Assembly: GCA_963661285.1 (NCBI GenBank)
Contig: CAVLBF010000005.1
Location: forward strand, 32,006 to 96,005
Direction of reading: 5' to 3'
DNA from: Bacteroidaceae bacterium
GTDB taxonomy: Bacteria; Bacteroidota; Bacteroidia; Bacteroidales; UBA932
DNA: 64,000 nt
In this document: piece after piece, positions 1 through 64,000 of the stretch
Layout: each line of letters opens with the position of its first letter
Numbering within the stretch: position 1 is the first letter of the stretch
The notes under the pieces: model-generated
The model's input: only the letters and a program-made list of their open reading frames with translations
What the model was told of the DNA's origin: nothing
Database searches by the model: none
Program-made: the position numbers and the translations under genes

Positions 1-1945
1 CCGCCGACATCATCACGCTGTCCGCTTCACCGGCCACGAATGCGCGGCGGATTTCCCGTCCGAGGTCGCTGCGGACGGGGATGTTCTGCAGGTTCGGGTT
101 GGACGAGGAGAGCCTGCCGGTCGAGGTGAGGGTCTGATTGAATGTGGTGTGCACTCTGCCGTCGCGGGGCGAGATGTAGCCGGCGAAAGGCTCGATATAG
201 GTCGAGAGCAGTTTGCGCAGTCCCCGGTAGTCGAGTATCGCATCGATGATCGGGCTGCGGTCCGAGAGTTCCTGCAGGGTCTGCTCGTCGGTCGGCCAGT
301 TGCCGGAGCGGGGTTTCTTCGCTTTCGGGTCCAGAGCGAGCTTCTCGTAGATTACCGCTCCTATCTGCTTGGGGGATGATATGTTGAGTCCTGGCTCGCC
401 GGCGAGTTCCCGCACTTCCGCCTCCCGCTGTGCCATACGGGCACGCAGCATAGCGGCGAAGCCGGAGAGCGAGTCGAGATCCACCTTGACCCCGACGGTC
501 TCCATCCTGGAGAGCACTCCTATCAGCGGTTCTTCTATCTCGTCATAGAGCTTGCGCAGGCCCTGCGTGGTGTCGATTTCCCGTTTCAGGCAATCGTCGA
601 GCCGGAGCAGGGCGAGTGCCGACTTGGCCATATCCGGGCCTTCGGGCTGCGCTTCGCCCTCATCGAAGAGAGTGGCTTCCGTCTGCTGCTCTCCCTCCGA
701 GAGGTCAAGCCCGAGGTAGCTGCTGACCAGCGACTCGAACTTGTGGCTGCGCTCCGGGTTGAGCAGATAGTGCATCAGCTCCACATCTTCCAGTCTCCCC
801 GCGAGACGGATTCCCTCCGCTGCAAGTGCGTTCATAGAAGACTTGAGCCCGGAGCCGACCTTCACTATGGTTTCGTCCTCCAGAACGCTGCGGAACTCTT
901 CCGCCGTTCCGGCCGCGCATTTCGATGCGGTAGCGGCATAGAACCGCTCTCCGCCCGGCCACAGGGACATCCTGCCTTCCCGCAGCGCCAGCGGGATGAA
1001 CTCTTCTACGGGCAGCATCTCCGCTTCCATCTCCCGGGCCGCAGTCGCGGCGGGGCTGGCGCGTCGGGAACCCCCGTCCGTCAATTTGGCGAGCAGCCTC
1101 CTCAGGGACGGCATCTCGTATTCGTCCAGCAGGGCTTCAAGCGCCGGAGTGTCTTCCGGGGCGAAGACCATATCCTCAGCCTTGACGTCCAAAGGTACGT
1201 CGGTGCGTATGGTGACAAGTTCTTCGGAGAGCCTGATGTGCGGCTCGGCTGCTCGGAAAAGCTCCTGCTGCCGAGGCGTAAGTTCTTCCAGATGAGCATA
1301 TATCCCCTCTGTGCTGCCGTATTTTGCGAGCAGTTTCGCCGCGCCCACCGGGCCTACGCCCTGCACTCCCGGCACATTGTCCGAAGCGTCCCCGCAGAGC
1401 GTCAGGATATCCCTGACTTGGGCGGCGGAGTCTATCTTCCATTTGGCGCAGACCGCCGCTTCATCGATGATCTCGTTGTCCGAGCCTGACTTCCCGGGCT
1501 TATACTGGAAGATGTGAGGGGCGACAAGCTGCCCGTAATCCTTGTCCGGGGTCACCATATATACCTCGAAGCCTTCTGCGGCGAAGCGTTTTGCGGCCGT
1601 GCCTATCACGTCGTCCGCTTCGAATCCTCTCACCATCAGCACCGGGATGTCGAGCGAGCGGACTATCGAGGTCAGCGGTTCGAGCGCATCTATCACCAGC
1701 TGCGGAGTTTCGCTCCTGTTGGCCTTGTAGAGGGGATAGAGCCTGTTGCGGAAAGTGCCGCCGGGAGGGTCGAAACTGACGGCGATGTGCGTGGGCTTCT
1801 CGCGGTCGATCATCTCCAGAAGGTATTTGGTGAACCCGAAGAGAATCGAGGTGTCAGCGCCCTTGGAATTGACCATCGGGCGTCCGAGGAAGGCGTAGTA
1901 CATCTTGAAGATCAGCGCGTGACCGTCGATGAGAAAAAGTTTCAT
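1..1945 (-). CDS. polA: DNA polymerase I (5' part; runs off the window start)
   Basis: ATG at 1945 reads MKLFLIDGHALIFKMYYAF (5'-3' exonuclease N-terminus); near position 1 the same frame reads RVHTTFNQTLTSTGRLSSSNPNLQNIPVR (family A polymerase). Absent from the ORF track because no stop lies in the window. Confidence 0.95.
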   Translation of the reverse strand, partial: MKLFLIDGHALIFKMYYAFLGRPMVNSKGADTSILFGFTKYLLEMIDREKPTHIAVSFDPPGGTFRNRLYPLYKANRSETPQLVIDALEPLTSIVRSLDIPVLMVRGFEADDVIGTAAKRFAAEGFEVYMVTPDKDYGQLVAPHIFQYKPGKSGSDNEIIDEAAVCAKWKIDSAAQVRDILTLCGDASDNVPGVQGVGPVGAAKLLAKYGSTEGIYAHLEELTPRQQELFRAAEPHIRLSEELVTIRTDVPLDVKAEDMVFAPEDTPALEALLDEYEMPSLRRLLAKLTDGGSRRASPAATAAREMEAEMLPVEEFIPLALREGRMSLWPGGERFYAATASKCAAGTAEEFRSVLEDETIVKVGSGLKSSMNALAAEGIRLAGRLEDVELMHYLLNPERSHKFESLVSSYLGLDLSEGEQQTEATLFDEGEAQPEGPDMAKSALALLRLDDCLKREIDTTQGLRKLYDEIEEPLIGVLSRMETVGVKVDLDSLSGFAAMLRARMAQREAEVRELAGEPGLNISSPKQIGAVIYEKLALDPKAKKPRSGNWPTDEQTLQELSDRSPIIDAILDYRGLRKLLSTYIEPFAGYISPRDGRVHTTFNQTLTSTGRLSSSNPNLQNIPVRSDLGREIRRAFVAGEADSVMMSA

Positions 1946-2011
1946 TCGGCAAAGATGAAACTTTTTGCGAAACTTCGCAAACTTCCTGACAAAAACCGAG
2001 GGGCCCGAAAG

Positions 2012-2878
2012 CTATACCTCCACCCAGTGGATTCTGACCCCGCTCCGCTCCATCCCGCGGAACCAGGTCATCTGGCGCTTGGAGAACTGGTGGATGGCGA
2101 CGGCGAGACGCTCCCGCATCCCGGAGTAGTCGAGAGAGCCCTGCAAGTATAGGGTGACGAACTTATATTCAAGTCCGTAGGAGATGAGCGTCTCCGCCGG
2201 AACGCCGCTTTCCAGCAGTCCACGGACCTCCTCGACCAGACCCTCCTTGAGGCGTGCGTCGAGTCTGAGGTCAATACGCCTGTTGCGCTCTTCGCGCGAG
2301 ACGAGCGTCCCGATGAAGAAAGGATGCCGGGGCAGACCCTCGATGCCGTGTTCCCCCCGCTCCGCGCTCAGAGCCTTGCGGGAGGCGAAGTCATAGCCTG
2401 CGGTGACGGCGTTGATATACATCCCCGTGCCTCCGCAGAGTATCGGCACGACGGCCCTGCGGCGCAGCTCCGTCCATACCCTGCTGAAGTCGCGCTGATA
2501 TTGGTAGACATTGTATTGCGCCCCGGCAGGCAGTATGTCGATCAGGTGGTAGGGGACGTCTTCATATTCGCCGAGGTCTTTGCCCGTGCCGATGTCCATA
2601 CCTCTATATACCTGTCGGGAGTCGGCGGAGATGATTTCCGCCCCGCTGATGCGCACTTCGTCCGTCATCCTGCCAGGGCAGCCCTCGAAGAGTCCCAGCT
2701 GGGCGGAAGCGTTGATTTCCTTGGCGAGTCCGACGGCATATCGGGTCTTGCCGGAGGCGGTCGGGCCGAGCACGACGATGAGGTCTACTCTGGAGTCGAG
2801 GTAGTCGCGGGCGAGAGCCCCGAAGTCGATGGTCTCCGGGGTAGGAAGCTCCGCTATGACTGACTTGACTTTAGGCAT
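2012..2878 (-). CDS. miaA: tRNA dimethylallyltransferase-like (IPP transferase family), internally shortened
   Basis: GPTASGKT P-loop, IISADSRQVYRGMDIGTGK, CGGTGMY, FSKRQMTWFR. Confidence 0.85.
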   Translation of the reverse strand: MPKVKSVIAELPTPETIDFGALARDYLDSRVDLIVVLGPTASGKTRYAVGLAKEINASAQLGLFEGCPGRMTDEVRISGAEIISADSRQVYRGMDIGTGKDLGEYEDVPYHLIDILPAGAQYNVYQYQRDFSRVWTELRRRAVVPILCGGTGMYINAVTAGYDFASRKALSAERGEHGIEGLPRHPFFIGTLVSREERNRRIDLRLDARLKEGLVEEVRGLLESGVPAETLISYGLEYKFVTLYLQGSLDYSGMRERLAVAIHQFSKRQMTWFRGMERSGVRIHWVEV

Positions 2879-2885
2879 AGGCGGC

Positions 2886-3341: not shown

Positions 3342-3357
3342 ATCCGTAGAAGCGGCT

Positions 3358-4650: not shown

Positions 4651-4662
4651 GTCAATTCGCCG

Positions 4663-10355: not shown

Positions 10356-10697
10356 ATGAGGAGAGTGATAAGAAGTCGAGAGTTTGATGCGTTCTTTGAA
10401 TGGCTGCCCTCAAATGTTCAGGAGAAGGTGCTATATGCCCTATCCGTTATTGCTGACATCAAAGTTGTCAGCACCAAACTCGTCAAAAAACCAGTTGACA
10501 CCGAATTCTATGAGCTGCGCATAAGTATGAATAATGAGTACAGGGTGATTGTCTTGGCCATTGATTCGGACAGTTTTATTGAGAGCGGGCAGGTTCTGCT
10601 CCTCAACGGCTTCGTGAAGAAATCCACGAAGGACTACAGGCGGGAGGTAGATAAGGCGAGAAGGATAGTGAATTTATTGGAAACCGAGAAGATATGA
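10356..10697 (+). CDS. Type II TA toxin, RelE/HigB (Gp49-like) family
   Basis: 113 aa; FYELRI...NEYRV...LLLNGFVKKS; upstream of and overlapping an HTH gene. Confidence 0.85.
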   Translation: MRRVIRSREFDAFFEWLPSNVQEKVLYALSVIADIKVVSTKLVKKPVDTEFYELRISMNNEYRVIVLAIDSDSFIESGQVLLLNGFVKKSTKDYRREVDKARRIVNLLETEKI

Positions 10698-11002
10698 TTG
10701 ACAAAGACAAGTTGCGCACCCTTCCTACAGTGGAGGATATGCTGGCGGAAAGATATGGAGAGAAAGGCTCCGGGACGAGAGATGCGTTTGACGCAAAGGC
10801 TCTTGCCTGGTATTATGCCGAAGTGCTCAAGGATGCCCGCAAGTCAGCAGGACTGACCCAGCGCCAGTTGGCCGAGAAAATCGGCAAGAAGCGCGAATAT
10901 GTCGCTATGCTCGAAAAGGGGGAGACGGATATGCAACTCTCTACATTCATAATGATGTCCGAAGCGCTCGGACTGAAGTTGACTTTGACCGACAGCAGAT
11001 AG
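10694..11002 (+). CDS. XRE-family HTH antitoxin (HigA-like)
   Basis: LKDARKSAGLTQRQLAEKIGKKREYVAMLEKG; ATGA overlap with the toxin. Confidence 0.88.
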   Translation: MIDKDKLRTLPTVEDMLAERYGEKGSGTRDAFDAKALAWYYAEVLKDARKSAGLTQRQLAEKIGKKREYVAMLEKGETDMQLSTFIMMSEALGLKLTLTDSR

Positions 11003-11184
11003 ACAGCACCGAACCATATGCGGATGCCGGGCTTCTGCCGCCGAACTGCTTGCGTAAGAAACACTGTGCCGGTCGCAGTCCCAGGTACTTTGCCCAAAGC
11101 AAGTCAATCTCGGAAAAAATGTAATAAAGTAAAAATATTCGGTCGAAAAAATGAATCTTTGCGCGGATAATAGTGATTATTAGG

Positions 11185-11322
11185 ATGTTAAAGAGAAAGA
11201 TTGAAATGCTCCCCCTGTATATGGGATTTCTGCTTGCCGGGAATGACTCCGCTGACAATATCGCGGATGTTGACATAGCCGGATTGGATGATAGACTCTC
11301 GAGTCTGCTTGAGAACTCATAA
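11185..11322 (+). pseudogene. 45-aa remnant, probably an internally deleted AAA/DUF4143-type ATPase gene
   Basis: MLKRKIE-MLPLYMGFLLAGNDSADNIADVDIAGLDDRLSSLLENS*; start and LPLYM tail resemble the two ends of this family; GAATCTTTG promoter-like element upstream. Confidence 0.5.
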
Positions 11323-11358
11323 TCAGAAAAACTCCAATTAACATTTCGTAAATATACC

Positions 11359-11381
11359 GCTTTGAATTTGAAATTCAAAGC
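11359..11381. promoter_or_regulatory. Perfect 23-bp palindrome (operator-like)
   Basis: GCTTTGAATTT-G-AAATTCAAAGC. Confidence 0.55.
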
Positions 11382-11460
11382 AAGACTCCGCAAGTTTTCG
11401 GCATCCAGGCTGCGGTCGCGCGTGCTCGCACATTGCTGCCGCTTCCGGACTTGCCATAGT

Positions 11461-11589
11461 TGCCGTCCAGGTAGGGAGTTCCGGGCAGATTCATTCCCTA
11501 TCTGGATTTTGCGGAGGCCCTGAAAGCCCTTCTGCGGCAGATGCCGTCTCCAGGTGGGGAAGTTCCGGCCCGGAAATGTCCCCACCTGG
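11461..11589. repeat. Two related REP-like hairpin elements
   Basis: CCAGGTAGGGA..TCCCTATCTGG (11467-11505) and CCAGGTGGGGA..TCCCCACCTGG (11550-11589); both preceded by TGCCGT and with GTTCCGG in the loop. Confidence 0.7.
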
Positions 11590-11668
11590 CCCGTCCCCTT
11601 TCAGACCGCAGTGAAGCTCCGCGCCGCAAAAAAGAGAATGACCCTTTTTTGGTCTCCCTCCCACGTAT

Positions 11669-12943
11669 TCAGGGGCGCAGGCAGCCGACAGGGATTACAT
11701 AGACACCGTCTTTGCGCTGATAGGCATATTCCCCGACCGCAGTCAGCACCAAAAGAAACGATGGGCTTCTCATCTTGTCGGAATCTATCTTGCCGGACAG
11801 TTCTTTCAGCGATGTCGCCGCCTTCTCGACATTATCGGCTCCTCCAAGCTTAATCTCCGTCAGACCATACCTGCCGTCGCGAAGATGAACCACGGCATCG
11901 CATTCAAGCCCGGAGGAGTCGCGGTAGTGGCATACTTCTCCTATAAGCGCGTCCGCATAGACCCGCAGGTCACGTGCGGCGAGAGATTCGAAATACAAGC
12001 CGAACGTGTGCAGGTCTCCAATCAGGTCTGAAGGCCCTATGGACAGAGCTGCGGTGGCGATGCTCGGATCGACGAAATATCTGCTGTCGGATGATTGGAC
12101 GGTAGTCTTGCTCCTGAGGTTGGGATTCCACGCCGGCATATCTTCCAGCACAAACAGCTTTTTGAGAGCATCGGCGTAGTCCGAGACCGTCTCGTACGAT
12201 ATGTCGGCATTGTCGTTCTCCTTGATGTCGCGACACATCTTTGAGAAACTGGTTGCCGTACCCACATTTCTTGCATAGGAACGCATCAGCAGCCTCGCTC
12301 TTTCGCTGCTCCGCCTGACATTGTCTATTCGATGGATGTCAACTTTGTAGATGGTCTCAAAGTAGTCTCCGGCCTGGTCGAGCGCAAGGTCGCCGGAGAG
12401 GAAAGTTGACATCGGCCAGCCGCCGCGGCAAATCAGGAAAGCGATTTCTTCCAGACTTAGAGGATTGGTCTGCAACTCTATGCTCTTGCCTTCGAATAAG
12501 TCTTTCAGCGAGACGGAACCGGAGCTTTCTCCTGATTCCCAAAGACTCATAGGGCGCATATTCAGCCAGGCGTAACGCCCGCTGCCGCTGTGCTTTCTCT
12601 TACTCTCATCTATAGGGACACTGCTCCCCGTAAGGATGAACTGGCCGAAAGCGCCGCGATCGTCAACTTCGCCGCGAATCATATCCCAGAGTTCCGGAAT
12701 TGATTGCCATTCGTCAATCAGGCGCGGCGTCTCTCCTTGAAGCAAAGCCGTAGGCCGGATCTGCAGCGTCAGCAGCGCATCGTCCAGCACATTGGTCTTG
12801 CCGAGGTCAAGGATACTCTTGGAAATCTGCTTTGCCGTGGTGGTTTTACCGCACCATTTAGGCCCTTGTACCAAAACGGCTCCTTTGCCCGCCAGCTTCC
12901 GCTTCAGGAGGGCATCGGCTATTCGTGGCTTGTACGTGTCCAT
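11669..12943 (-). CDS. ATP-binding protein, AAA_14 + DUF4143
   Basis: Walker A GPKWCGKTT, Walker B LIDEWQ, FILTGS, YFVDPSI, HYRDSSGLECDAV..EIKLG (PD-(D/E)XK-like tail). Confidence 0.9.
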   Translation of the reverse strand: MDTYKPRIADALLKRKLAGKGAVLVQGPKWCGKTTTAKQISKSILDLGKTNVLDDALLTLQIRPTALLQGETPRLIDEWQSIPELWDMIRGEVDDRGAFGQFILTGSSVPIDESKRKHSGSGRYAWLNMRPMSLWESGESSGSVSLKDLFEGKSIELQTNPLSLEEIAFLICRGGWPMSTFLSGDLALDQAGDYFETIYKVDIHRIDNVRRSSERARLLMRSYARNVGTATSFSKMCRDIKENDNADISYETVSDYADALKKLFVLEDMPAWNPNLRSKTTVQSSDSRYFVDPSIATAALSIGPSDLIGDLHTFGLYFESLAARDLRVYADALIGEVCHYRDSSGLECDAVVHLRDGRYGLTEIKLGGADNVEKAATSLKELSGKIDSDKMRSPSFLLVLTAVGEYAYQRKDGVYVIPVGCLRP

Positions 12944-30535: not shown

Positions 30536-33130
30536 ATGAAAAGACACCTGCTATCGGTCGCCGCGGCATCCGCCCTCCTGGCCCTGTCCGCCTGCACTGC
30601 GGACGAAAAGACAAATATCGGGACGCGCACGGACGCGCTTGACGATGCGTTGTGGACTAAATCCGAATGGATTTCCGCCGCCGATGCTCCGGTAGCGGAA
30701 CAGATTGTCACCAACGGAGCCACTGAACGGGCCGCCGACGGGTCCAGCTGGTTTGTCAGCGAAGTGACCAACCCTAAAAAGGTCTCTTCGGCAGTCTGGA
30801 TGACGAGCGGACTCGGAATATACCGCATCTTCCTCAACGGTGTCGAGGTGGGGGAGGAAATCCTCAAACCGGGATTTACCCATTATGCAAAGACCAGGCT
30901 CTCTTTTACCTACGATGTGACCGATGCGTTCCTTAAGGGAGCGGGAGAAGTCAATCAGCTCTCTGCACAGCTCACTCCGGGCTGGTGGGCGGACAAGATT
31001 GTCACCCCGAAGAACCACAGGGGGATGGTCGGGCGCAAGACGGCTTTCAGGGGAGTGTTGAAACTTATATATTCGGACGGTTCCGCCGAAGTGTTCGGAA
31101 CTGACTGCCGCGACTGGAAGGCGGGCGTGGCGGGGCCTGTCACCCACGCCGCGATATTCGACGGAGAAGAATACGATGCCCGTATCCCGCAGGGCTTCCT
31201 TACTCCGGAAAAACTCTCTGTCCCGGAACCCAACACTGAGTTCAAAGGCTTGATTGTCCCGTCCGACGGCGCGGAAATCCATCTTCGTCGCGACATCTCC
31301 CTCTCCGTGCAGCAGGCATATGTCTGGAAAGACATCACGGATGCTGGAGAAGGAGAATACGGCAAGGTGGCCGTGTCCCGGACATACGCTCCCGGCGAGG
31401 AGATGAGCATACTTCCGGGAGAGAATCTGATCCTTGACTTCGGGCAGAACTGCGCCGGCGTGCCTGAATTCGAGTTTTCCGCCCCGGAGGGGACGGTACT
31501 CACTTTCCTCCCGGCGGAGCTTCTCAATGACGGCAATGGCGCTCTCGGCAGAGGTATGGACGGCCCGGAAGGAAGCGTCCACCGCACCAATCTCCGCACA
31601 CCGGATACCGGGATGAGGCTGGTCTATACCTTCGGCCCCCAAAAGGGATATGTGACTTATCATCCGTCTTGCACCTTTTTCGGATACCGCTATGCTTCAG
31701 TGAGCGCGAGTGCCCAGGTCAAGATACGCTCGGTCAGGACGCTGCCCGTAAGCTCGATCACCAAAGAAATGGAAACCGGCAGCATCACTACCGGTAACGA
31801 ATCAATCAACAAGCTAATTTCCAATACTCTCTGGGGAGAGAGGTCCAATTATCTTTCCGTCCCTACCGACTGTCCGCAGCGCAACGAACGGCTCGGATGG
31901 ACGGCTGACACTCAGGTGTTCGCCGAGACAGGGGCGTTTTTTGCCGACACGGACGACTTCTTCCACAAGTGGACTCGCGACCTGCGCGACACCCAGTCTC
32001 CGACCGGAGCATATCCGGGAGTGGCCCCGCTGGCCCAGTACGGAGCAAGCAGCCGCGAGATGATGAGGCTCGGATGGGCTGATGCCGGAGTCATCGTGCC
32101 GTGGGTCATATGGAGGCAGTTCGCCGACAGGAGCATCATAGAAGAGAACTGGGATGCGATGGACAAGTATATGCGGCACGTAAACGACAGTCGCTACGAC
32201 CACCGCGCCCTCAGCGGGGAGAACGGCAACTACCAGTGGGGCGACTGGCTCAGCTATGAGCCGCTCGAGAGCCGCGGACAGGGGATTTACGAGGACGGCA
32301 AGAGCAAATTGAGAAAGGAAGCCGTTGAATACTGGAATTATCTTGGAGCCTGCTATTGGGCGATGGACGCGCAGATGATGGCGGATATGGCGAGAGCCGT
32401 TTCCCGTCCAGCCGAAGAATACGAGACGATGGCAGGGAACGCCCGCGCATATCTCAAGGAGCAGTTCCTTGACAGCGAGGGTAATTTCAAGACGGCCATT
32501 CTCAACACTATGCAGACCCCGGCCCTCTTTGCCCTGAAGAATTCGCTCGTGGAAGGCAAGGCCCGGGAGAATATGGTTTCGCGTCTGCGCAAGAATTTCG
32601 CGGACCACGGCAACTGCTTGCAGACAGGCTTCCTCGGCACTTCAATACTGATGTCGACCCTGTCCGACAACGGGATGACGGACGTTGCCTATGAACTGCT
32701 CTTCCAAAGGAAGAACCCGAGCTGGCTATATTCCGTGGACAACGGCGCGACCACCATCTGGGAACGCTGGAACAGCTATACCATAAGTGACGGGATGGGG
32801 CCGAAGGAGATGAACAGCTTCAATCACTACGCCTACGGCTGCGTGTGCGAGTGGCTCTGGAACACGGCGGCCGGCATCGAGGCCGATACGGCGTCCCCGG
32901 GATTCAGGCATATCATTATGAAGCCGGTTCCTGACCGCCGGCTCGGATATCTCAAGGCGGAGTACAAATCCGCGTCCGGCCCCATCAGGAGCGAGTGGAA
33001 ATATGACGGCGATGTCTGGGAATGGAAATTCAGCATCCCGCAGGGGAGCAGCGCGACGGTCTCGCTGCCTGACGGCAGCGCTCCGGCCGAATATGGGGCC
33101 GGTGACCATATCGTAAGGATAACACTCTGA
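30536..33130 (+). CDS. Alpha-L-rhamnosidase (GH78), lipoprotein
   Basis: Lipobox LSAC; LDFGQN, PTDCPQRNERLGWTAD, GATTIWERW, MNSFNHYAYG. Confidence 0.92.
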   Translation: MKRHLLSVAAASALLALSACTADEKTNIGTRTDALDDALWTKSEWISAADAPVAEQIVTNGATERAADGSSWFVSEVTNPKKVSSAVWMTSGLGIYRIFLNGVEVGEEILKPGFTHYAKTRLSFTYDVTDAFLKGAGEVNQLSAQLTPGWWADKIVTPKNHRGMVGRKTAFRGVLKLIYSDGSAEVFGTDCRDWKAGVAGPVTHAAIFDGEEYDARIPQGFLTPEKLSVPEPNTEFKGLIVPSDGAEIHLRRDISLSVQQAYVWKDITDAGEGEYGKVAVSRTYAPGEEMSILPGENLILDFGQNCAGVPEFEFSAPEGTVLTFLPAELLNDGNGALGRGMDGPEGSVHRTNLRTPDTGMRLVYTFGPQKGYVTYHPSCTFFGYRYASVSASAQVKIRSVRTLPVSSITKEMETGSITTGNESINKLISNTLWGERSNYLSVPTDCPQRNERLGWTADTQVFAETGAFFADTDDFFHKWTRDLRDTQSPTGAYPGVAPLAQYGASSREMMRLGWADAGVIVPWVIWRQFADRSIIEENWDAMDKYMRHVNDSRYDHRALSGENGNYQWGDWLSYEPLESRGQGIYEDGKSKLRKEAVEYWNYLGACYWAMDAQMMADMARAVSRPAEEYETMAGNARAYLKEQFLDSEGNFKTAILNTMQTPALFALKNSLVEGKARENMVSRLRKNFADHGNCLQTGFLGTSILMSTLSDNGMTDVAYELLFQRKNPSWLYSVDNGATTIWERWNSYTISDGMGPKEMNSFNHYAYGCVCEWLWNTAAGIEADTASPGFRHIIMKPVPDRRLGYLKAEYKSASGPIRSEWKYDGDVWEWKFSIPQGSSATVSLPDGSAPAEYGAGDHIVRITL

Positions 33131-33143
33131 AAGTTTTAGGAAA

Positions 33144-35492
33144 ATGCGTAAAATAGCTGTATTGGCGGCGGTGATGCTTGCTTTGGTATGGACGGCAGGC
33201 GCACAGCATACCCCGGGGAAGGAGTATGTATTTGATGACGGATGGTCGTTCCGCCTATGTTCTTCAAGAGCGGAGGCGGACTCCCTTGTCAAATCATCCG
33301 GAAAGAAAGGATTCCGTCCCGTGCGCATCCCGCACGACTGGAGCGTCGAGCTTCCCTTCGATAAGGAACTGGGCAAGGCGGCGGGGTATCTGCCCGGCGG
33401 GCTCGGCTTGTATGTCAAGGAGTTCAAGCTCCCGTCATATGTCGCGGACGCAGAGAGGATAAGCATAGTCTTCGATGGAGTGTACCACAATGCCACGGTC
33501 TATCTCAACGGACGTGAACTTGGCAGGCACATCTACGGGTACACGGATTTCACTTTTGACATCTCCCGACATCTTAAGAGAAACGGGACTAACCGCATAG
33601 CAGTCTTTGTCGATATGGAGCAGCAGTCCCGCTGGTACACGGGGGCGGGCATATATCGTCACGTATATCTCAAGACATCCGGACGCGCACACTTCAGGTA
33701 CAACGGCATCTGGGTCAAACCCGAAGTGGACGGTAATGTTCAAATCAGTGCCGAAGTCGATGGCGGCAGACGCTACAGTGTGAAACATACGGTATCCGGT
33801 CCGGACGGGAAGCAAATCGTCCAAACCGGCGGGACATCCCTGAAAGTAGAGTCTCCGCTGCTCTGGAGTCCCGATTCCCCGGTCCTATATACTCTCAAAT
33901 CCGCACTTTATGACGATTCCGGCAAGCTTTCCGATGAGGTAGTGACGCGCTTCGGTTTCCGTGAGGCCCGTTTTGAGGCGGACAGCGGCTTTTTCCTCAA
34001 CGGTGTCAATATGAAACTCAAGGGTGTCTGTCTGCATCAGGATGCGGGCAGCCTGGGAGTGGCCGTACCGGATGAAGTCTGGCTGAGACGGCTGAAGGCC
34101 CTCAAGGCAATAGGCTGCAATGCCATACGTTCTTCGCATAATCCTCCTTCTCCGGTTTTTCTGGACTATTGCGACTCTCTGGGCTTTCTCGTGATAGATG
34201 AAGCCTTCGACAAGTGGAAGTCGGGTTATTACGAAAGTTCGTTCGAAAGCAGCGCCCGACAGGATATCAGTGATATGGTTCTCCGTGACCGCAATCATCC
34301 TTCGATTATCATCTGGAGTATAGGCAATGAGGTCACCGAGGCGTTGAGAACCGATGACGAAGGAGTTGAGCGTGCCCGCAAACTTCACAAAATCGTGAAG
34401 TCCCTGGATCCCACACGGCCGACAATGGTGGCCTGCCAGAGCGGATTCGCCGACAAGTTCGGAGATGTCACGGACATAGTCGGCTACAACTATTTGGAGC
34501 CGCGTATGATCAAAGACCATATCCGTCATCCGGAGAGAAAGATGCTCGTTTCCGAAGCATTCCCGTATTATTCCGGTTTGAGGGAGGACAATATCAGGGA
34601 TTTCGTGGAACTGAACCCGTGGAATTTTGTGGAGGACAATCCGTTCATCGCGGGTTCTTTTGTCTGGGCCGGCATTGACTATCTCGGAGAGTCCGCTCCG
34701 TGGCCGGCGAAGGGCTGGTGTGCATCGCCCTTTGATATCACGCTGAAAGAGAGGCCGCAGGCTGCCTACTATCATCCGGCGTGGTCACCGGAGAAAGATT
34801 ATCTCAAGCTTCTTGTCCGGGACAATTGCTTTGACCAGCCGGCGGGCAAGGATCATTGGCAGTATCCGCCGATGGCCGACACCTGGGATCTCCCTTATGA
34901 GGATTCCCGCTGTGTGGAGGTTCGCTGTTATACGACCTGCGACTCGGTGAAGTTCTTCTTCCCGATGTGGAGCAATCCTCAGCTGCCGCTCCGGACCCGT
35001 GTCACCGCAGACTATGCGGATTATTGCATCAAGCTTCAGATTCCGTCCACTCGCGGCAAGGTTCTGGCTGTCGGATACAAGGACGGCGAAGAAGTGCTGC
35101 GCGATTCTCTTGTCAATCACGGTCCTGTGGCGGATGTGAGACTTGATGCTGATTTTGAGTCCCTTGAGCCGCTCCCGGAGGATTTCAGCCCTCGTGCCGC
35201 CTCTTCGACCGTGTCGCATATACGGCTGAGTCTCGTGGACAGCCTGGGCCGTCTTCAGCAGATGGAGCCAAGACATTTCCGTGTCGAGACCGATGGGCCG
35301 CTGCGACTCCTTGGAGTGGAGACTGGGGATATGCGCCGGGAGGGTTCGTGGCGCACCGTGGAGTTGGATACATATTTCGGAGAAGGCCTTATACGTGTGC
35401 AGTCAACATCCGAACCGGGTCTTGCCAAAGTGGTCGTGTATGTGGAGGGCTTCGCGAAGCCGTTCGCTAAGGAAATCAGGGTGACTCACTGA
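33144..35492 (+). CDS. Glycoside hydrolase family 2 (beta-galactosidase-like)
   Basis: Signal peptide; IPHDWS, RWYTGAGIYR, GCNAIRSSHNP, RDRNHPSIIIWSIGNE. Confidence 0.9.
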   Translation: MRKIAVLAAVMLALVWTAGAQHTPGKEYVFDDGWSFRLCSSRAEADSLVKSSGKKGFRPVRIPHDWSVELPFDKELGKAAGYLPGGLGLYVKEFKLPSYVADAERISIVFDGVYHNATVYLNGRELGRHIYGYTDFTFDISRHLKRNGTNRIAVFVDMEQQSRWYTGAGIYRHVYLKTSGRAHFRYNGIWVKPEVDGNVQISAEVDGGRRYSVKHTVSGPDGKQIVQTGGTSLKVESPLLWSPDSPVLYTLKSALYDDSGKLSDEVVTRFGFREARFEADSGFFLNGVNMKLKGVCLHQDAGSLGVAVPDEVWLRRLKALKAIGCNAIRSSHNPPSPVFLDYCDSLGFLVIDEAFDKWKSGYYESSFESSARQDISDMVLRDRNHPSIIIWSIGNEVTEALRTDDEGVERARKLHKIVKSLDPTRPTMVACQSGFADKFGDVTDIVGYNYLEPRMIKDHIRHPERKMLVSEAFPYYSGLREDNIRDFVELNPWNFVEDNPFIAGSFVWAGIDYLGESAPWPAKGWCASPFDITLKERPQAAYYHPAWSPEKDYLKLLVRDNCFDQPAGKDHWQYPPMADTWDLPYEDSRCVEVRCYTTCDSVKFFFPMWSNPQLPLRTRVTADYADYCIKLQIPSTRGKVLAVGYKDGEEVLRDSLVNHGPVADVRLDADFESLEPLPEDFSPRAASSTVSHIRLSLVDSLGRLQQMEPRHFRVETDGPLRLLGVETGDMRREGSWRTVELDTYFGEGLIRVQSTSEPGLAKVVVYVEGFAKPFAKEIRVTH

Positions 35493-35496: not shown

Positions 35497-35568
35497 CGGC
35501 TCGGCGGTGAAACTGATGCCCCCGAACATCTCCGTGAGCGTCGCGTCAATCTGGTTCTCTGTGATCAT
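35497..35568. repeat. 72-bp direct repeat, copy 2 (truncated 5' fragment of the polyprenyl synthetase gene)
   Basis: Minus strand encodes MITENQIDATLTEMFGGISFTAEP then diverges; its ATG overlaps the methyltransferase TGA. Confidence 0.95.
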
Positions 35569-36318
35569 ATCGTGGTGTAGTCGAACAATCTTTGGTTGAC
35601 GGCGGGTTTCCTGTGGGTGCTTTCACGGTGTCCGGACTCCCCAGAATACCTCAGAATGGCATCCGCAACATAGTAGCCGAGGTTTACCGGCACGGCGTTG
35701 CCTATCATCTGCTCGATGTCGGTCTTGGTGCCCTCGAAATCAAAGTCTTCGGGGAAAGTCTGAATCATACTTCGCTCCAGCGAAGTCAGTGGGCGTATCC
35801 CCGCAAGTGAGCTGACCGGGTCTCCGGGATGCAGAGTATAACCTTTGGGCATCGGCCTGTTGACACCCCGGATTGTGGCGCTCGGCTCGTCAGTGCTGAA
35901 TATTCCACGGCGCACATAGCTGCGTGGATGTCTGTAATAATACTTTATCGGCAATCTGTCGCCGAAGTACTCCACCACGCTCATCTCGTGGTCTGACAGG
36001 TTTTCCAGAAGGGTATCCTTTATGAAATCATCTTTCGCCCCGAGCCTGCCGACCATCATGAAACGCTTTCTCCTTTGCGGTACGCCGCACAATGCGGCAT
36101 TGAGGACGGTATATGTTATACCGTAGCCCGCAGCCCTGAACAACTTGAGCGCATCCTGGAGCTTCTGCGTCTGCACATATCGCCGGATGGGAAAAGTTGT
36201 TCCTGTAAACGGAAAGCGCATCCTGCCAATTGTCAAATGCGGCGACAATTGTCATCCCGGCTTTTTCGAAGCCGAGGCTCAAACCGCCGCAACCGCAAAA
36301 TAAATCAACGACTTTCAT
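35565..36318 (-). pseudogene. C5-cytosine DNA methyltransferase with internal deletion and frameshift (M.HindV/HgiDI-like)
   Basis: Motif I DLFCGCGG in one frame; GVPQRRKR, YYRHPRSY..PSATIRGVNRP, QTFP and QMIGNAVP in another; catalytic PC and ENV motifs absent; junction near 36169-36174. Confidence 0.9.
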
Positions 36319-36421: not shown

Positions 36422-36841
36422 TCACGCAAAAATGCGGTCCAGAAAGTCGTCCGGGGCGATTGCGGGAATCTCGGAAAGCTTGAAGTCAACGGTGTTTCTC
36501 GTGACTATGATGTCGCACCGGCCTTCCTTGGCGGACTGGACCTGCAACGCGTCCTCAATGTCGCGCAGCGGGCTCGCCAGCATAAATTCTATATGCTCCG
36601 GCAGGGACGGGAGCGGCTGTACGATGTCCAAAAGCTCCCTGATTACGGCTTTCTTGGCAGAGCTCGTCATATCTTTAAGGACATAGGCCACGGTCGGAAT
36701 GGAGAGCGTCGACATACGCAGCTCCAGTACACCGCTTTCGCCGAGGCTGAGAATCGTGGCGGCATTTTCGCCGAACTTCGGATTGTCCCGCGCCACAAGA
36801 GTGTCCAGGATGATGTTGGTATCAAGGAAGACTCTCATCAT
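36422..36841 (-). CDS. PIN-domain (VapC-like) toxin
   Basis: VFLDTNIILD, DIEDALQ, IVTRN..DF. Confidence 0.9.
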   Translation of the reverse strand: MMRVFLDTNIILDTLVARDNPKFGENAATILSLGESGVLELRMSTLSIPTVAYVLKDMTSSAKKAVIRELLDIVQPLPSLPEHIEFMLASPLRDIEDALQVQSAKEGRCDIIVTRNTVDFKLSEIPAIAPDDFLDRIFA

Positions 36842-37119
36842 CTTGACAGGATATATGCGAGCCTTTCATCCTCTTCCAGCTGCCTGTCAGTGAACCTGAC
36901 TACTCCGGTGAGTTTTTTGACCCGCTGCGAGACGACGGGCCTGGCGAGCTTCGGAAATTCCAGAGAGTCAAGCGACCTCTGCTTATGGACAATGCGGAAT
37001 CCGTCGTTCGTTTCGATGATGTCGAACTCCGTCTTGCTGTCGTAATTCTTCGCCCTGAGGATTTTAGCCGGGATGATCAGGGCCTTGCTGTTCCCGATTT
37101 GAACCAAAGTGTGCGCCAT
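36838..37119 (-). CDS. AbrB/MazE-type antitoxin
   Basis: LVQIGNSKALIIPAKIL; ATGA overlap with the PIN gene; TATCTTTG at 37147-37140. Confidence 0.85.
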   Translation of the reverse strand: MAHTLVQIGNSKALIIPAKILRAKNYDSKTEFDIIETNDGFRIVHKQRSLDSLEFPKLARPVVSQRVKKLTGVVRFTDRQLEEDERLAYILSR

Positions 37120-45512: not shown

Positions 45513-46364
45513 ATGGGACGACAAAATCCGGACGGGAGAGACACAGTCTACAGGCTGACGCTTGCGGACAACGGCACCCATAGAAGCATTCGCTCGATAA
45601 TCTTCACGAAATTCCGCTTCATCACTTTCGCCACTACCGTAGTCGTGGTGTTCATCCTCTTGATATACTGTATTATAGCCTTTACTCCGCTGCGTCTTGC
45701 AATCCCGGGCTATCCGGATGCCAAGTTCAAGAAGACCGCCCTTTCCAATGCAATCAAGATAGATTCTCTCGAGAGCGCGGTCACCCGATGGAATCTCTAC
45801 GCCGAGAACCTGAGCCGCGTGCTCGCGGGAGAGAGTACGATCGATCTCGACAGCGTGCTCGGAGGCAATGCGGTGAGGTATCTCTCCGCCAAGTCGGCCT
45901 CTGAGCTCCGCGAGCGCGATTCCCTGCTTAGGGAGACGGTGCGCGGGGAGGAGAAGTTCGGGGTCAGTTCGTCTTCCGGGAAGGCGCTTCCGATCGAGGG
46001 CCTGCACTTCTTCACGCCGGTCAAGGGAGTGGTGGTCGAGAGTTTCGATGCCGTGACCCATCCTGCCATCGACATTGCGGTGCCGTCCGGCACCGTGGTG
46101 AGCGCGACTCTGGACGGAACGGTGGTTTATTCGGGCTGGAACGAAGAACTCGAATATGTGGTCGTGGTGCAGCACAAGGACAATCTGATCAGCATATACG
46201 GCAACAATATGAAGACTCTCCGCAAGAGCGGGGACGAAGTCAAGGCCGGTACGCCGCTCGCGCTCTCGGGAGGGGCTTCCACCGGCTCGGGCAAGGGACA
46301 TCTGCACTTCGAGCTCTGGCACGGAGGACGCCCTCTGAACCCGACACAATTCATAAGTTTCTAG
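45513..46364 (+). CDS. Membrane-anchored M23 peptidase
   Basis: TM segment then FTPLR..IPGYP; HPAID, HLHFELW. Confidence 0.88.
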   Translation: MGRQNPDGRDTVYRLTLADNGTHRSIRSIIFTKFRFITFATTVVVVFILLIYCIIAFTPLRLAIPGYPDAKFKKTALSNAIKIDSLESAVTRWNLYAENLSRVLAGESTIDLDSVLGGNAVRYLSAKSASELRERDSLLRETVRGEEKFGVSSSSGKALPIEGLHFFTPVKGVVVESFDAVTHPAIDIAVPSGTVVSATLDGTVVYSGWNEELEYVVVVQHKDNLISIYGNNMKTLRKSGDEVKAGTPLALSGGASTGSGKGHLHFELWHGGRPLNPTQFISF

Positions 46365-47518
46365 TGGAAAAGAGAAAGATAGCAATACTGGGCTCTACGG
46401 GCTCGATCGGCACTCAGACGCTGGATGTCATACGCCGGCATCCGGACCTCTTCGAGGTGGAGCTGATTTCCGCCCGGCGGAGCGTGGACCTGCTTATCGG
46501 GCAGGCGATAGAATTCAATGCCGCGAACGTGGTGATTTGCGATGATTCGCGCTACACTGAAGTGGCCGACGCCCTCCAGCCCCGAGGCATCAAAGTCTGG
46601 TCCGGGATTGACAGCCTGTGCGAGCTCGTGCGGCTGCCGAGCGTGGACATAGTGGTCGGGGCGATGGTGGGATTCAGCGGACTGCGGCCGACGATGGCCG
46701 CGCTTGAGGCCGGGAAAATCCTGGCGCTTGCCAACAAGGAGACCCTGGTCGCCGCCGGAAACATAGTCACCCGCACTATGCGGGAGCACAGGGCGGTCAT
46801 CCTGCCGGTGGATTCGGAGCATTCGGCCATTTTCCAGTGCCTGCTCGCCGCCAGAGGCAACGAGGTCGAAAAACTGCACCTTACCGCGTCCGGAGGCCCG
46901 TTCCGGGGATGGGACAGGCCGCGGATAGCCGCCGCCACGGCACAGATGGCTCTCAAGCACCCGAACTGGAATATGGGGGCCAAGGTGACCATAGATTCCG
47001 CCACGATGATGAACAAGGGATTCGAGGTCATAGAGGCCAGATGGCTCTTCGACGTCAAGGCGGAGCGCATCAACGTGGTGGTGCATCCTGAGTCGGTGAT
47101 ACACTCTATGGTGGAATTCGCCGACGGGGCCGTAATCGCCCAGCTCGGCTGGCCGGATATGCGCGAACCTATAGGATTCGCGCTCTCGTTCCCCGCAAGG
47201 CTGCCGGTCGGCAACCGAAAGCTCGACTTCGCGGAGCTCGGGCATCTCAGCTTCGAAGCTCCCGATATGGCCAAATTCCCCTGCCTGGAACTCGCCTACG
47301 AGGCCCTGCGGCGGGGAGGGAACGCTCCCTGCGCGCTCAACGCCGCCAACGAGGTGGCGGTGGCCGCATACCTCAAGGGGTTGATAGGATTCTATGACAT
47401 CGCACGGATCAATGAGAAGTGCCTTGCTGGCCTGAATTTTGCCGAGAATCCGAGCATTGACGATATTTTTCAGACAAACAAGGAGATAGCATCGATTGCC
47501 GATGGTTATATTGCTTAA
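46364..47518 (+). CDS. dxr: 1-deoxy-D-xylulose-5-phosphate reductoisomerase
   Basis: LGSTGSIG, LANKE, LPVDSEH, TASGGPFR, HPNWNMG, MNKGFEVIEA. Confidence 0.97.
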   Translation: MEKRKIAILGSTGSIGTQTLDVIRRHPDLFEVELISARRSVDLLIGQAIEFNAANVVICDDSRYTEVADALQPRGIKVWSGIDSLCELVRLPSVDIVVGAMVGFSGLRPTMAALEAGKILALANKETLVAAGNIVTRTMREHRAVILPVDSEHSAIFQCLLAARGNEVEKLHLTASGGPFRGWDRPRIAAATAQMALKHPNWNMGAKVTIDSATMMNKGFEVIEARWLFDVKAERINVVVHPESVIHSMVEFADGAVIAQLGWPDMREPIGFALSFPARLPVGNRKLDFAELGHLSFEAPDMAKFPCLELAYEALRRGGNAPCALNAANEVAVAAYLKGLIGFYDIARINEKCLAGLNFAENPSIDDIFQTNKEIASIADGYIA

Positions 47519-48797
47519 GACGCTTCAGGTCATTCTCGCCCTCTCGCTCCTGATAATAATTCACGAGCTGGGTCACTTTATGTGGGCCAAGTTCTTCGGA
47601 ATCAGGGTTGAGAAGTTCTATCTCTTCTTCGATGCCGGAGGCAAGGCGATCGCCCGCTGGAAGTGGGGGGATACGGAGTTCGGCATCGGCTGGCTGCCTT
47701 TCGGCGGCTACTGCAAGATATCCGGGATGATAGACGAGTCGATGGACCTCGAGCAGATGCGCCGTCCCCCGCAGCCCTGGGAGTTCCGCTCCCGTCCGGC
47801 CTGGCAGCGGCTGCTGGTGATGGCGGGCGGGGTGCTCAACAACTTCATCTTCGCGGTGCTCGCCTATATCGGCATTATGGCCGCGTGGGGGCAGTCCTAT
47901 ATAGACAACAGCGACAGCCGCATATATGTCAATGACCTCGCCTACGAGATGGGGTTCCGCACCGGAGACCGTATCCTTAAGTTCGACGACTACAGTCCGG
48001 AGAACTTCGCTATGCTGCAGGCCGACCTTGCGCGGCGCGACGTGCACAAGGCGACGGTGCTCCGGGGTACGGACACTCTGGACATATATGTGGATCAGGC
48101 GATGATAGGAGAGGTGCTCAACTCTCCGATGATGTTCGACCTCGCCATCCCGTTCGTGGTGGATTCGGTCGCTTCCGGCCCCAACGCCTCTTCGGGGCTG
48201 CGCAGGGGCGACAGGATAGTATCGTTCGACGGGAATGCCGTGGAGTACCTTCAGGACTCCCGCCGCGTGCTCTCCGGGATGAAGTCACGCACGGTCGAAG
48301 CTACGGTGCTCAGGGGCGGAGACACGCTGTCCATCCCCGTGAGCGTGGACACGACGGGACGCATCGGGGTCTATATGGCCACTCCGTCCGTCAAAGTCAA
48401 GCACTACGGCCTGCTGGACGCTATCCCTGCCGGCATCAAGCTGACGGGAAGCACTATAGGGGGCTATGTGAGAGACCTGGGCCTGCTGGTGAGACCCTCC
48501 ACCGGGGCCTACAAGTCTGTGGGCAGCTTCATCGCCATCGGACAGGTCTTCCCTGCGAGCTGGGACTCTTACCGCTTCATCAACATCCTCGCGCTGCTTT
48601 CCATAATGCTCGCGGTGATGAATCTGATCCCGATTCCGGCACTGGACGGGGGACATATACTCTTCACTCTCTATGAGATGATTACGGGACGCAAGCCGAG
48701 CGACCGCTTTCTGGCCGTCGCGCAGACGATAGGGATGCTCCTGCTGCTCGCGCTGATGTTCCTCGCCTTCGGCAACGATATTGCACGTATAATATAA
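47502..48797 (+). CDS. rseP: RIP metalloprotease RseP (M50 + PDZ)
   Basis: HELGH, PFGGY, NLIPIPALDGG. Confidence 0.93.
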   Translation: MVILLKTLQVILALSLLIIIHELGHFMWAKFFGIRVEKFYLFFDAGGKAIARWKWGDTEFGIGWLPFGGYCKISGMIDESMDLEQMRRPPQPWEFRSRPAWQRLLVMAGGVLNNFIFAVLAYIGIMAAWGQSYIDNSDSRIYVNDLAYEMGFRTGDRILKFDDYSPENFAMLQADLARRDVHKATVLRGTDTLDIYVDQAMIGEVLNSPMMFDLAIPFVVDSVASGPNASSGLRRGDRIVSFDGNAVEYLQDSRRVLSGMKSRTVEATVLRGGDTLSIPVSVDTTGRIGVYMATPSVKVKHYGLLDAIPAGIKLTGSTIGGYVRDLGLLVRPSTGAYKSVGSFIAIGQVFPASWDSYRFINILALLSIMLAVMNLIPIPALDGGHILFTLYEMITGRKPSDRFLAVAQTIGMLLLLALMFLAFGNDIARII

Positions 48798-60979: not shown

Positions 60980-60996
60980 TCTATTCATATTTTGCA

Positions 60997-62423: not shown

Positions 62424-62438
62424 GCCGTGCGACGGGTC

Positions 62439-62840: not shown

Positions 62841-62843
62841 ATC

Positions 62844-63533
62844 TCAGAACAGGTTTTTCTTGCTGACCGTGGCGACGAACTGCTTGAGGTAGAACGGCTC
62901 GAAGTAGGCGCAGTCCCGGAATTCTCCCCTGTCCAGCGCCTCCTGCGCCGGGACGAGCATCGACGAGGCCCTTGGATGCTCCTGTACGAACACGGCGTTC
63001 GGGGACCGGATGACGGAGGAACACTTCTCCGCCGCGTCTCCGATGAACAGCACCGGACCCTCTTCGAGCAGAGCGCCGAAGCTCCCGGCATCTATGATGC
63101 GGGGCTCCACCTCAGTTTTCCTCACGCCTTCAGGAGAATAGACGGCAGTGTAGACCTCCATCCTGCGCGCGTCCACCATCGGCACGATGGCTCTGCATCC
63201 CTCCGGTAGTCCGCGCTCCAGGGCTTGACGCGCCAGAATGTCGAGAGTCCCGACTGCGAGCAGCGGAATCCCCGCCGCGAAGCACAGGCCCTTGGCGGTG
63301 GACACGCCGACCCTCAGCCCGGTGTAGGACCCCGGCCCGGCGCTGACGCAGACCGCATCGCAGTCGCCCATAGCAAGGCCCTGCGAGGCGAGAACCTCTT
63401 TCACGAAAGGCGCGGTCATCGCCGCGTGAGCCTTGGGAGTGTCGCTCTCCCTGCTCGCCGCGATTCTGCCTCCGTCTGCCAGAGCCACGGAGCACAGGGC
63501 GGTCGATGTCTCGATGAGAATGATTCTGCTCAT
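62844..63533 (-). CDS. tsaB: tRNA threonylcarbamoyladenosine biosynthesis protein TsaB
   Basis: IETSTALCSVAL, GPGSYTGLRVG, DARRMEVY, EPFYLK. Confidence 0.95.
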   Translation of the reverse strand: MSRIILIETSTALCSVALADGGRIAASRESDTPKAHAAMTAPFVKEVLASQGLAMGDCDAVCVSAGPGSYTGLRVGVSTAKGLCFAAGIPLLAVGTLDILARQALERGLPEGCRAIVPMVDARRMEVYTAVYSPEGVRKTEVEPRIIDAGSFGALLEEGPVLFIGDAAEKCSSVIRSPNAVFVQEHPRASSMLVPAQEALDRGEFRDCAYFEPFYLKQFVATVSKKNLF

Positions 63534-63542
63534 AAGTCAAGT

Positions 63543-64000
63543 TTATATTGTTATTCCAAGGCCGCTTCCCGCCTCGTTTATGAAGGACTTGAGGAACGGG
63601 AAGACGGTAGATGCCAGATTCCTGAGGGCCTGATAGACGACCGCGTCACTGAGCCTCTCCGGCTCCACGAAACCGACGGTGGAGTTGAGAGCTTCGAAGA
63701 CCATAATGAGAAGCCCGAGCACAAGGGCTACCTTGAACACTCCGAACACCAGGCCGAGAAGGCCGTTGATCCAGCCCAGGAACACTATCTTCAGCAGTCT
63801 GGTCAACAGCGAGCCCGCAAGCCCCAGCAGCAGCACGAACAGCAGCACGATGACGACGAAGCTCACTATCCGCAGGAGTTCCGGCTCCAGAGTGAAATAC
63901 TGTGCGAGCCACGCGCTGAGCGAGGCCGAGAAGCTGAACGCCGCCCATACGCCGGCGACTATGGCCACTATCTCCACCACCTGCTTGACAAAGCCCTTTC
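63543..64000 (-). CDS. CvpA family membrane protein (5' end outside the window)
   Basis: KGFVKQVVEIVA...; GWINGLLGLVFG; multi-TM. Confidence 0.8.
   Translation of the reverse strand, partial: KGFVKQVVEIVAIVAGVWAAFSFSASLSAWLAQYFTLEPELLRIVSFVVIVLLFVLLLGLAGSLLTRLLKIVFLGWINGLLGLVFGVFKVALVLGLLIMVFEALNSTVGFVEPERLSDAVVYQALRNLASTVFPFLKSFINEAGSGLGITI

Follow-up and report, generated by a model that had tools for sequence, protein, structure and literature searches.

Near-total loss of the tetramer CATG from a Candidatus Cryptobacteroides chromosome: selection against the word, with type II restriction-modification systems as the probable agent

Why should 64,000 nucleotides of a Bacteroidales chromosome contain the tetramer CATG only once? 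We asked this of positions 32,006-96,005 of contig CAVLBF010000005.1 (assembly GCA_963661285.1; hereafter the window), which are part of contig C5 in the core chromosome of a genome that we call G000; other G numbers denote its relatives, C numbers its contigs and L numbers individual loci. An exact count returned one CATG, compared with 224.6 expected from a maximal-order Markov model built on trinucleotides and 250.4 +/- 16.2 from 100 dinucleotide shuffles, and CATG was the most depleted tetramer of the window (observed/expected 0.004). The near-total absence that a first-pass annotation had read by eye was thus borne out, as was its remark that the purge extends to the toxin-antitoxin modules and the GH78/GH2 cassette, each of which has no site; the AAA gene at 11669-12943 has none either. 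The sole site is a Phe-Met codon junction within a C5-methyltransferase pseudogene. This pseudogene was rejected as the cause of the purge, since a deletion of Pfam PF00145 positions 50-120 removes its catalytic part and shifts the frame, and nothing links it to CATG.

The annotation's further expectations fared unevenly. Palindromes of the same composition are common in the case of GTAC, TGCA, AGCT and TCGA (ratios 0.79-1.12) but not of GATC (110/303 observed/expected, 0.36) or ACGT (98/172, 0.57), and CTAG is also low (7/89, 0.08). The base before an internal ATG, supposed to be typically T, is more often G (G 219, T 156, A 31, C 1), and the supposed excess of TATG/CATA exists (1.34) but is surpassed by that of GATG/CATC (1.68). 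The depletion itself survived both the Markov correction and a correction for codons and amino-acid pairs.

The same depletion runs through the genome. G000 (2.38 Mb, 57% GC, 96.8% complete) belongs to Candidatus Cryptobacteroides according to the source names of homologous proteins, and its whole assembly holds 354 CATG compared with about 8,555 expected. In the core, defined as contigs C1-C34 minus the prophage-like C18, C29 and first 45 kb of C2, we counted 49 in 1.85 Mb. Given amino-acid pairs and codon usage in core genes (called with a simple in-house caller), observed/expected counts were 4/677 for CAT-G, 2/239 for xCA-TG and 20/4944 for NNC-ATG, so that all three codon frames stand at 0.4-0.8% of expectation; intergenic DNA gave 30/389 on both strands. 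The purge depth tracks the nativeness of the DNA. Core genes with a GC content at third codon positions of at least 0.76 had 8/3868, those at 0.68-0.76 had 7/1294 and those below 0.68 had 11/377, while prophage and other mobile contigs had ratios of 0.09-0.55. Residual sites occur in prophages, in 4 of the 42 transfer RNA (tRNA) and transfer-messenger RNA genes, and as a six-site cluster on C14 that we read from its sequence as an insertion-sequence fragment. Codon, amino-acid and trinucleotide bias was ruled out as the cause by the Markov and codon/amino-acid-pair expectations. The possibility that CATG is just the core of a longer target, such as GCATGC or CCATGG, was also excluded, since the residual sites span all ten flank contexts and two hexamers returned the same genome set. 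Such depletion, beyond both Markov and codon expectation, constitutes site avoidance.

The purge arose repeatedly within the genus. As a proxy for genome searches we compared GCATGG with its reversal GGTACG and called genomes with a ratio below 0.5 purged; the proxy agreed with TCATGT in 80 chosen genomes and with full CATG counts in the stretches fetched. Purged genomes numbered 34 of 201 in the genus (median ratio 1.58) and 0 of 190 drawn across the order, where the lowest ratio was about 0.59 as read by eye. A tree of the 30 nearest genomes, built on three genes, has those low in CATG dispersed over it: the sisters G000 and G099 are both purged, G119 has a low value, G179 is intermediate and G152 and G054 are near normal, whereas G086 is purged and its sister G052 much less depleted, with G181 and G220 as further cases. 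One tract in G099 (L046:1-7555) carries 33 CATG in 7.5 kb; its aligned 5.9 kb are 83.7% identical to G152 and 79.9% to G000, and its flank is 88% identical to G000. Tracts rich in CATG in G099 and in parts of G086 and G128 probably stem from recent interspecies recombination, although the G099 contig could be chimeric.

Was the word lost through mutation or through selection? The pair G052/G086 (185 orthologous genes, 81,043 codons, 94% amino-acid identity) allowed the exits to be followed base by base. G052 has 691 coding CATG, of which G086 keeps 41. A four-fold degenerate C before ATG in G052 had changed in G086 at 270 of 286 sites (to T at 164, A at 57 and G at 49), whereas control C before other codons beginning with A had changed at 479 of 3590. 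CAT before G became CAC at 57 of 75 sites and TAT at 2, and xCA before TG had changed at 28 of 30 sites with the background spectrum (A to C, G and T at 15, 9 and 4), so that exits by C to A, C to G, A to any other base and T to C were all accelerated. With G161 as outgroup (109 genes; 18 dropped for apparent recent exchange or for keeping at least two sites), C before ATG had been lost on the G086 branch at 153 of 157 ancestral sites compared with 260 of 2659 controls, a rate about 36-fold higher, and 0 of 423 sites had regained it, against about 35 predicted under mutation alone. Pooled comparisons of G000 with five relatives showed the same mostly silent exits.

Other routes to this pattern were excluded. 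The codons flanking lost sites are not more diverged (0.344 vs 0.326-0.331), which speaks against import of donor tracts and against patchy mutagenesis. G052 is itself about half depleted, and it shares four-fold sites with the outgroup about as controls do (odds ratio 2.67 vs 2.83); therefore, the loss lies on the G086 branch and is not a regain in G052. The G086 genes that keep CATG show a silent divergence from G052 of 0.16 instead of 0.35, consistent with recent imports. Because sites leave through any silent base, about 36 times faster than controls and without regain, the word has been selected against and has not simply decayed at its cytosine. In G000 only 15 CATG occur among about 12,500 silent one-step positions, and therefore this selection is current or very recent; it is accompanied by a small C-to-T excess.

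That excess bears on the proposal of the first-pass annotation that cytosine modification eroded CATG to TATG and CATA. Hypermutation at methylated sites, whether by deamination of 5-methylcytosine (5mC) or under combined cytosine and adenine marks, would remove the word without selection. The C-to-T share is indeed raised (164/270, 61%, vs 211/479, 44%, in controls; p=1e-5), Met is lost slightly more often after C (51/584 vs 82/1471, p=0.013), G000 has a probable CATG C5 methyltransferase (see below), and hypermutation of about 500-fold has been recorded at an N4-methylcytosine site (Cherry, bioRxiv 2021.01.19.427316). The Met-to-ATA change that the annotation had asked about also rose (8/584 after C vs 6/1471, p=0.03), but too mildly for erosion alone. 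The mild C-to-T excess fits a small 5mC contribution. However, the three frames are equally purged although two of them need a change at A or T, His became Tyr at only the 2 of 75 sites above, exits that involve no cytosine decay are accelerated, regain is blocked, and the flanking codons bear no mutagenic patch. Erosion alone is therefore not supported.

What, then, would make the word costly? As the annotation expected, the candidate gene lies outside the window: a low-GC pair at the 3' end of nadE on contig C4, in a nadE block that is inverted relative to G099 and G119, comprising a C5 methyltransferase and a 274-residue partner. The methyltransferase is 50.9% identical over 426 residues to an M. 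hyorhinis enzyme, with 47 of 62 residues matching in the target-recognition stretch, and this enzyme, annotated beside a UpaP162-family nuclease, appears to be the Mhy2 orthologue. UpaP162 cuts CATG and UPV229 protects against UpaP162 and NlaIII (PMC6191088), while Mhy2 clusters with UPV_229 and is reported to place 5mC at RCATGY and CG (PMC13736764). Judged by this homology, the G000 enzyme would write 5mC at CATG. Homologues with 85-88% identity are found in G049 (purged, gene broken) and in the unpurged G085 and G169, and the partner of the G169 homologue, for which a figure of 81% identity was also obtained, is a UpaP162-family nuclease (NF045956, 224.7 bits, cut-off 100).

The G000 partner matched no family in Pfam, PADLOC or NCBIfam (E<=1), and BLAST aligned it with neither End2 nor the G169 nuclease. 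Since it falls outside NF045956, G000 has the same methyltransferase family with a different partner and not a member of the UpaP162/Mhy2 system. It has 47 distant relatives, and residues E131, D163, D172 and K174 are invariant in the 32 that were aligned. Its structural model is confident (predicted local distance difference test, pLDDT, 94.7), with a weak best Foldseek match to AvaII (E=0.31, TM 0.22); a single-sequence fold was of no use (pLDDT 34.5), a structure search (VIA) gave no match at Z>=5, and a PDB search gave no clear match. We regard the partner as a putative PD-(D/E)XK nuclease. Searches of 10 deeply purged genomes and of viral contigs did not recover it.

One CATG is kept upstream of this methyltransferase in G000, G085 and G169, which have in common TATATTTGCATGG followed by a short direct repeat. 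In G000 the site directly follows TAnnTTTG, which we take to be the Bacteroidota promoter consensus, and it is the sole such case among 996. It is a candidate site of methyltransferase autoregulation. Methyltransferase homologues of 72% identity occur in three related phage loci with observed/expected CATG counts of 2/70, 1/66 and 1/54, and six other loci have ratios of 0.29-1.09. Viral contigs L437, L438 and L440-L444 carry a CATG-type C5 methyltransferase, and those loci gave no match to the partner nucleases; one group of these phages is CATG-purged, and another lacks CCGG and GATC in 21 kb.

A second, unrelated type of cassette occupies the same slot in close relatives. A search of the D12 family returned one methyltransferase group confined to low-CATG genomes, and its cassette comprises a permuted amino-methyltransferase, an IceA/NlaIII nuclease (PF05315, E=1e-114) and an NlaIII-type D12 methyltransferase. 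In G099 and G119 it sits at the nadE 3' end, where G000 has its C5 pair; G179 has there two small low-GC genes (a toxin-antitoxin pair by protein reading), and G152 and G054 have no restriction-modification genes. The same IceA1/NlaIII cluster has been described in Campylobacter jejuni sequence type 677 (ST-677; PMC4202330), and IceA1, a homologue of NlaIII, is a nuclease that acts on CATG (PMC13340068). The D12 gene (at least 65% identity) occurs in 9 of 201 genomes. IceA is whole, alongside D12, in G099, G020, G162 and G176, the nuclease is truncated in G119 and G181, and an EVE/NucS-like protein stands in the place of IceA in G129 and G196. That protein (L065:341-1492 in G196; 383 residues, about 2,660 relatives) is present, with or replacing IceA, in 35 of 80 GTDB loci (L160-L239), and could be a modification-dependent second nuclease. 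In the genus, all the CATG-type nucleases that we found share their cassette with a CATG-type methyltransferase, that of G085 being cut at a contig end. Family searches of G000 found no NlaIII/IceA cassette, its D12 matches being a prophage gene and one on C60, and cassette DNA was not found in 5 deeply purged genomes. A search for further strains of the species found no sequencing run; no metagenome contig matched the nadE end of G000, and of 80 metagenome loci with the NlaIII-type methyltransferase not one closely resembled G000 (78% in the best long match). The other systems of G000, which match families with other or no palindromic sites (XhoI, NgoBV, MvaI/BcnI, LlaJI, MmeI, type I), were set aside. 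A putatively cognate system is thus present in the genome or its near relatives, of the C5 type in G000 and of the NlaIII type in G099 and G119.

Carriers are strongly enriched among purged genomes. In the genus, 8 of 9 carriers of the NlaIII-type methyltransferase were purged and 26 of the 192 others; for carriers of either system the figures were 10 of 13 and 24 of 188. We also collected 80 GTDB loci of the first methyltransferase of the NlaIII-type cassette and counted whole genomes for 50. After removal of six loci from genomes already bearing G numbers, one duplicate, four Flavobacteriales and one genome with a non-Bacteroidota title, 21 Bacteroidales-labelled carriers were kept, with the reservation that titles may be wrong; 8 of these were purged, with ratios down to 0.03, compared with 0 of 190 in the order-wide draw. 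A Helicobacteraceae-labelled genome with an NlaIII-type cassette (G267, L200) is CATG-poor (34 vs 217), unlike Helicobacter pylori. The annotation had asked for genes whose presence tracks CATG loss; these cassettes are enriched among purged genomes, with the exceptions given below. Its suggested CATG-targeting defence system is supported, but the idea that self is protected by absence of the site alone is unsupported, because the nucleases are paired with methyltransferases and 354 sites are left.

With a probability of roughly 0.7, we interpret the purge as restriction-site avoidance under interchangeable CATG type II systems. Each site would cost slightly through self-cleavage, most of all in the short unmarked state of the chromosome that goes with the arrival, loss or exchange of a cassette, and CATG-free alleles would also cross the restriction barrier. 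The promoter CATG would be retained for autoregulation of the methyltransferase, and purged genomes without a cassette would have lost it, be polymorphic for it or have had it missed in assembly. By standard fixation theory, loss about 36-fold faster corresponds to a 2Ne*s of about that size, so that in a large population each site would cost very little.

A number of observations weigh against this interpretation. Neither system was seen in 24 of the 34 purged genomes, and the only carriers among the 20 deepest-purged are G099, G000 and G049, the last with a broken gene. Searches of G086 (95% complete) for a C5 enzyme, an NlaIII-type gene or IceA found none, yet its regain is fully blocked. 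G085 and G169, 92% identical at the locus, hold a C5/UpaP162 system and are unpurged (ratios 2.6 and 2.5), and most Campylobacterota carriers, Treponema and Flavobacteriales are unpurged as well; H. pylori keeps hpyIM and has CATG as its densest motif (PMC10423294; PMC2588503). A CATG system is therefore neither sufficient nor, in these bins, necessary. Kin are not independent, and therefore the p-values of the enrichment overstate it; purged chromosomes may also just admit cassettes more readily, which would reverse cause and effect. In addition, the Ureaplasma authors took UPV229 for an adenine (m6A) enzyme (PMC6191088), although it carries C5 motifs, and the G000 partner is of no known family, with no clear match in the fold search. 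On the other hand, cassettes often lie at contig ends (G119, G162, G176, G049, G085), and therefore metagenome bins miss them. Such breaks, the persistence of avoidance in relatives and the nuclease of H. pylori that is active in a minority of strains favour cassette loss, polymorphism or mis-binning.

A bolder form of this interpretation, which we put forward only tentatively, is that a CATG-free chromosome is a self-reinforcing state in which unrelated cassettes with different marks are swapped through one slot, and that the 274-residue protein founds a third family of CATG nucleases. An adenine mark would go with NlaIII/IceA or the EVE/NucS-like protein, and a cytosine mark with UpaP162 or the new family. 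Entry, loss or swap would leave the chromosome unmarked or wrongly marked, with killing that scales with the site count; once purged, a lineage would be immune to swaps, could toggle CATG restriction and would be protected mainly by the absence of the word, with one CATG kept on purpose in the methyltransferase promoter. If true, this would explain the deep-purge tail of the genus, the speed of the loss and the purged genomes without cassettes.

It is unlikely that another CATG-reading agent, shared or external, drives the purge with the known cassettes as passengers; it might be a non-methylating or single-strand-specific nuclease, or one delivered by phages or competitors. The 24 purged genomes without either system, the blocked regain in G086, the unpurged G085 and G169 that retain a system, and the current or very recent selection in G000 would all suit such an agent. 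However, G000 itself has a CATG-type system, bins miss cassettes at contig ends, CATG-bearing prophages and tRNA genes are present in the assembly, avoidance left by systems known only from relatives is well documented (PMC4687349), and no gene common to the purged lineages was found, a whole-proteome comparison not being part of that search. G086 does encode a permuted amino-methyltransferase with a TSPPY motif (L148:1309-2649) and no nuclease neighbour in the stretch seen; a family search did not find it in the sister G052, and it was not found in G000 or in 5 other purged genomes.

We consider it improbable that the cost lies in the methyl mark itself, through transcription, translation starts or protein binding, and not in cleavage. 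Methylated motifs are depleted in Bacteroides lineages, where a fitness cost of the modification has been proposed (Tisza et al., PMC10333322), and the nuclease genes of the purged G119 and G181 are truncated. Yet sites deep in coding sequence are purged as fully as others, G158, which has the methyltransferase only, is just mildly low (0.76), G085 and G169 are unpurged, and H. pylori methylates and enriches CATG (PMC10423294). Hypermutation, already largely refuted by the exits, frames and regains above, is the least probable of all.

Restriction-site avoidance is known, including in Bacteroides, and the present case is an extreme one. Rusinov et al. (2015; PMC4687349) described type II site avoidance in hosts, including traces of lost systems, and here too a palindromic tetramer is under-represented in carriers of orthodox type II systems and in relatives without one. 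Unlike those cases, for which the threshold was an observed/expected ratio <= 0.78, the core ratio here is 0.002-0.008; it was attained while control sites accumulated about 0.1 substitutions each, and repeatedly in one genus. The GTAC scarcity of H. pylori under the HpyAXII/PabI family (Humbert and Salama 2008, PMC2588503) is similar in its more than 50-fold depletion, its residual sites in structural RNA and a nuclease active in 18.9% of strains. That purge, however, is species-wide and old and involves the base-excision PabI family (PMC10273834). The CATG purge, in contrast, is recent and patchily distributed, with nucleases that are HNH-type (IceA) or putatively of the PD-(D/E)XK class and with two unrelated cassettes that alternate. 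In the B. fragilis group, of the same order, Tisza et al. (2023) found that motif depletion goes along with methyltransferases and that hypermutation does not account for it (PMC10333322); within species, 6 of their 14 motifs were statistically depleted, and CATG is absent from the main text, whereas we describe near-total removal with tests of rate and regain.

The cassettes also have known counterparts. That of the G099 type has the same parts as C. jejuni ST-677 and the H. pylori iceA1-hpyIM locus (PMC4202330, PMC13340068). It is absent from G000, and unlike those clusters many copies add or substitute the EVE/NucS-like protein; H. pylori does not avoid CATG. The G000 methyltransferase is a clear homologue of the Mollicutes enzymes of UpaP162/UPV_229 and Mhy2/End2, with a near-identical target-recognition stretch (PMC6191088, PMC13736764), and G085 and G169 carry the UpaP162-type nuclease. 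In contrast to the Mollicutes systems, the G000 partner is unrelated, and the Bacteroidales copies share the promoter CATG and repeat. Open-access main texts yielded no account of CATG loss in Cryptobacteroides or Bacteroidales, although the supplementary tables of Rusinov et al. and Tisza et al. may list cases.

What is new is the depth of the purge, its measured speed, its recurrence within a genus and the occupation of one slot by two unrelated CATG cassettes in sister species; a candidate nuclease family and a candidate retained promoter site may be added. The purged lineages are replicated natural experiments on the speed and completeness with which restriction-modification can recode a host, with about 98% of sites gone while 10% of control sites changed. 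Whether self-cleavage, transfer barriers or methylation cost underlies avoidance is an old question, and the pairs G052/G086 and G000/G099 make it testable. In practice, DNA intended for these bacteria is best CATG-free or methylated, CATG density flags recent imports and prophages, and tetranucleotide binning may part such genomes from their own accessory DNA.

Table 1. Positions of the features discussed, in the window unless a G000 contig is given
Feature	Position	Strand	Remarks
CATG-purged core chromosome	1..64000	.	candidate cause elsewhere: C4 gene pair by nadE
Toxin-antitoxin pair (GC 0.48) and AAA-ATPase gene	10356..12943	.	0 CATG; names from the first-pass annotation and protein reading
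Glycoside hydrolase pair (GH78/GH2 per the first-pass annotation)	30536..35492	+	0 CATG in 4957 bases
C5 DNA methyltransferase pseudogene, internal deletion and frameshift	35565..36318	-	PF00145 positions 1-49 and 121-323 only; catalytic part gone
Only CATG of the window, TTC-ATG junction	36057..36060	minus-strand reading	exact count
Toxin-antitoxin pair adjoining the pseudogene	36422..37119	-	0 CATG
M23 peptidase, dxr and rseP genes	45513..48797	+	marker for relative ranking and tree
Helix-turn-helix and C5 methyltransferase, Mhy2/UPV_229 family	G000:C4:21633-22916	.	PF00145 E=1e-63, HTH_17
Putative nuclease, 274 residues	G000:C4:23017-23841	.	adjoins methyltransferase
Retained CATG in methyltransferase promoter	C4:22953	.	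kept in G000, G085, G169

Other words are avoided in G000 as well: CTAG (0.115 over the whole genome), GATC (0.34), CCGCGG (0.33), GGCGCC (0.37), CATATG (0.43), GGWCC (0.46) and CTCGAG (0.53). The prophage-like contigs C18, C35, C37 and C55 contain no CTAG, with 35, 18, 13 and 6 expected, and strongly avoid GATC; their CATG avoidance is milder (0.16-0.55). C1:126222-130311 contains an XhoI-family system and a C5 enzyme, presumably Sau3AI-like, whose gene has no GATC. Contig C36 (L035) carries an integrative element with a C5 methyltransferase, HATPase, Z1, DUF4420 and MTaX1, followed by MotA-like and HNH genes, and has 13 CATG vs 86 expected. A long prokaryotic Argonaute of 751 residues (PADLOC pAgo, E=1e-208) lies beside an LlaJI-type restriction-modification system and an AbiGi-like gene at G000:C46:2011-9595 (L036).

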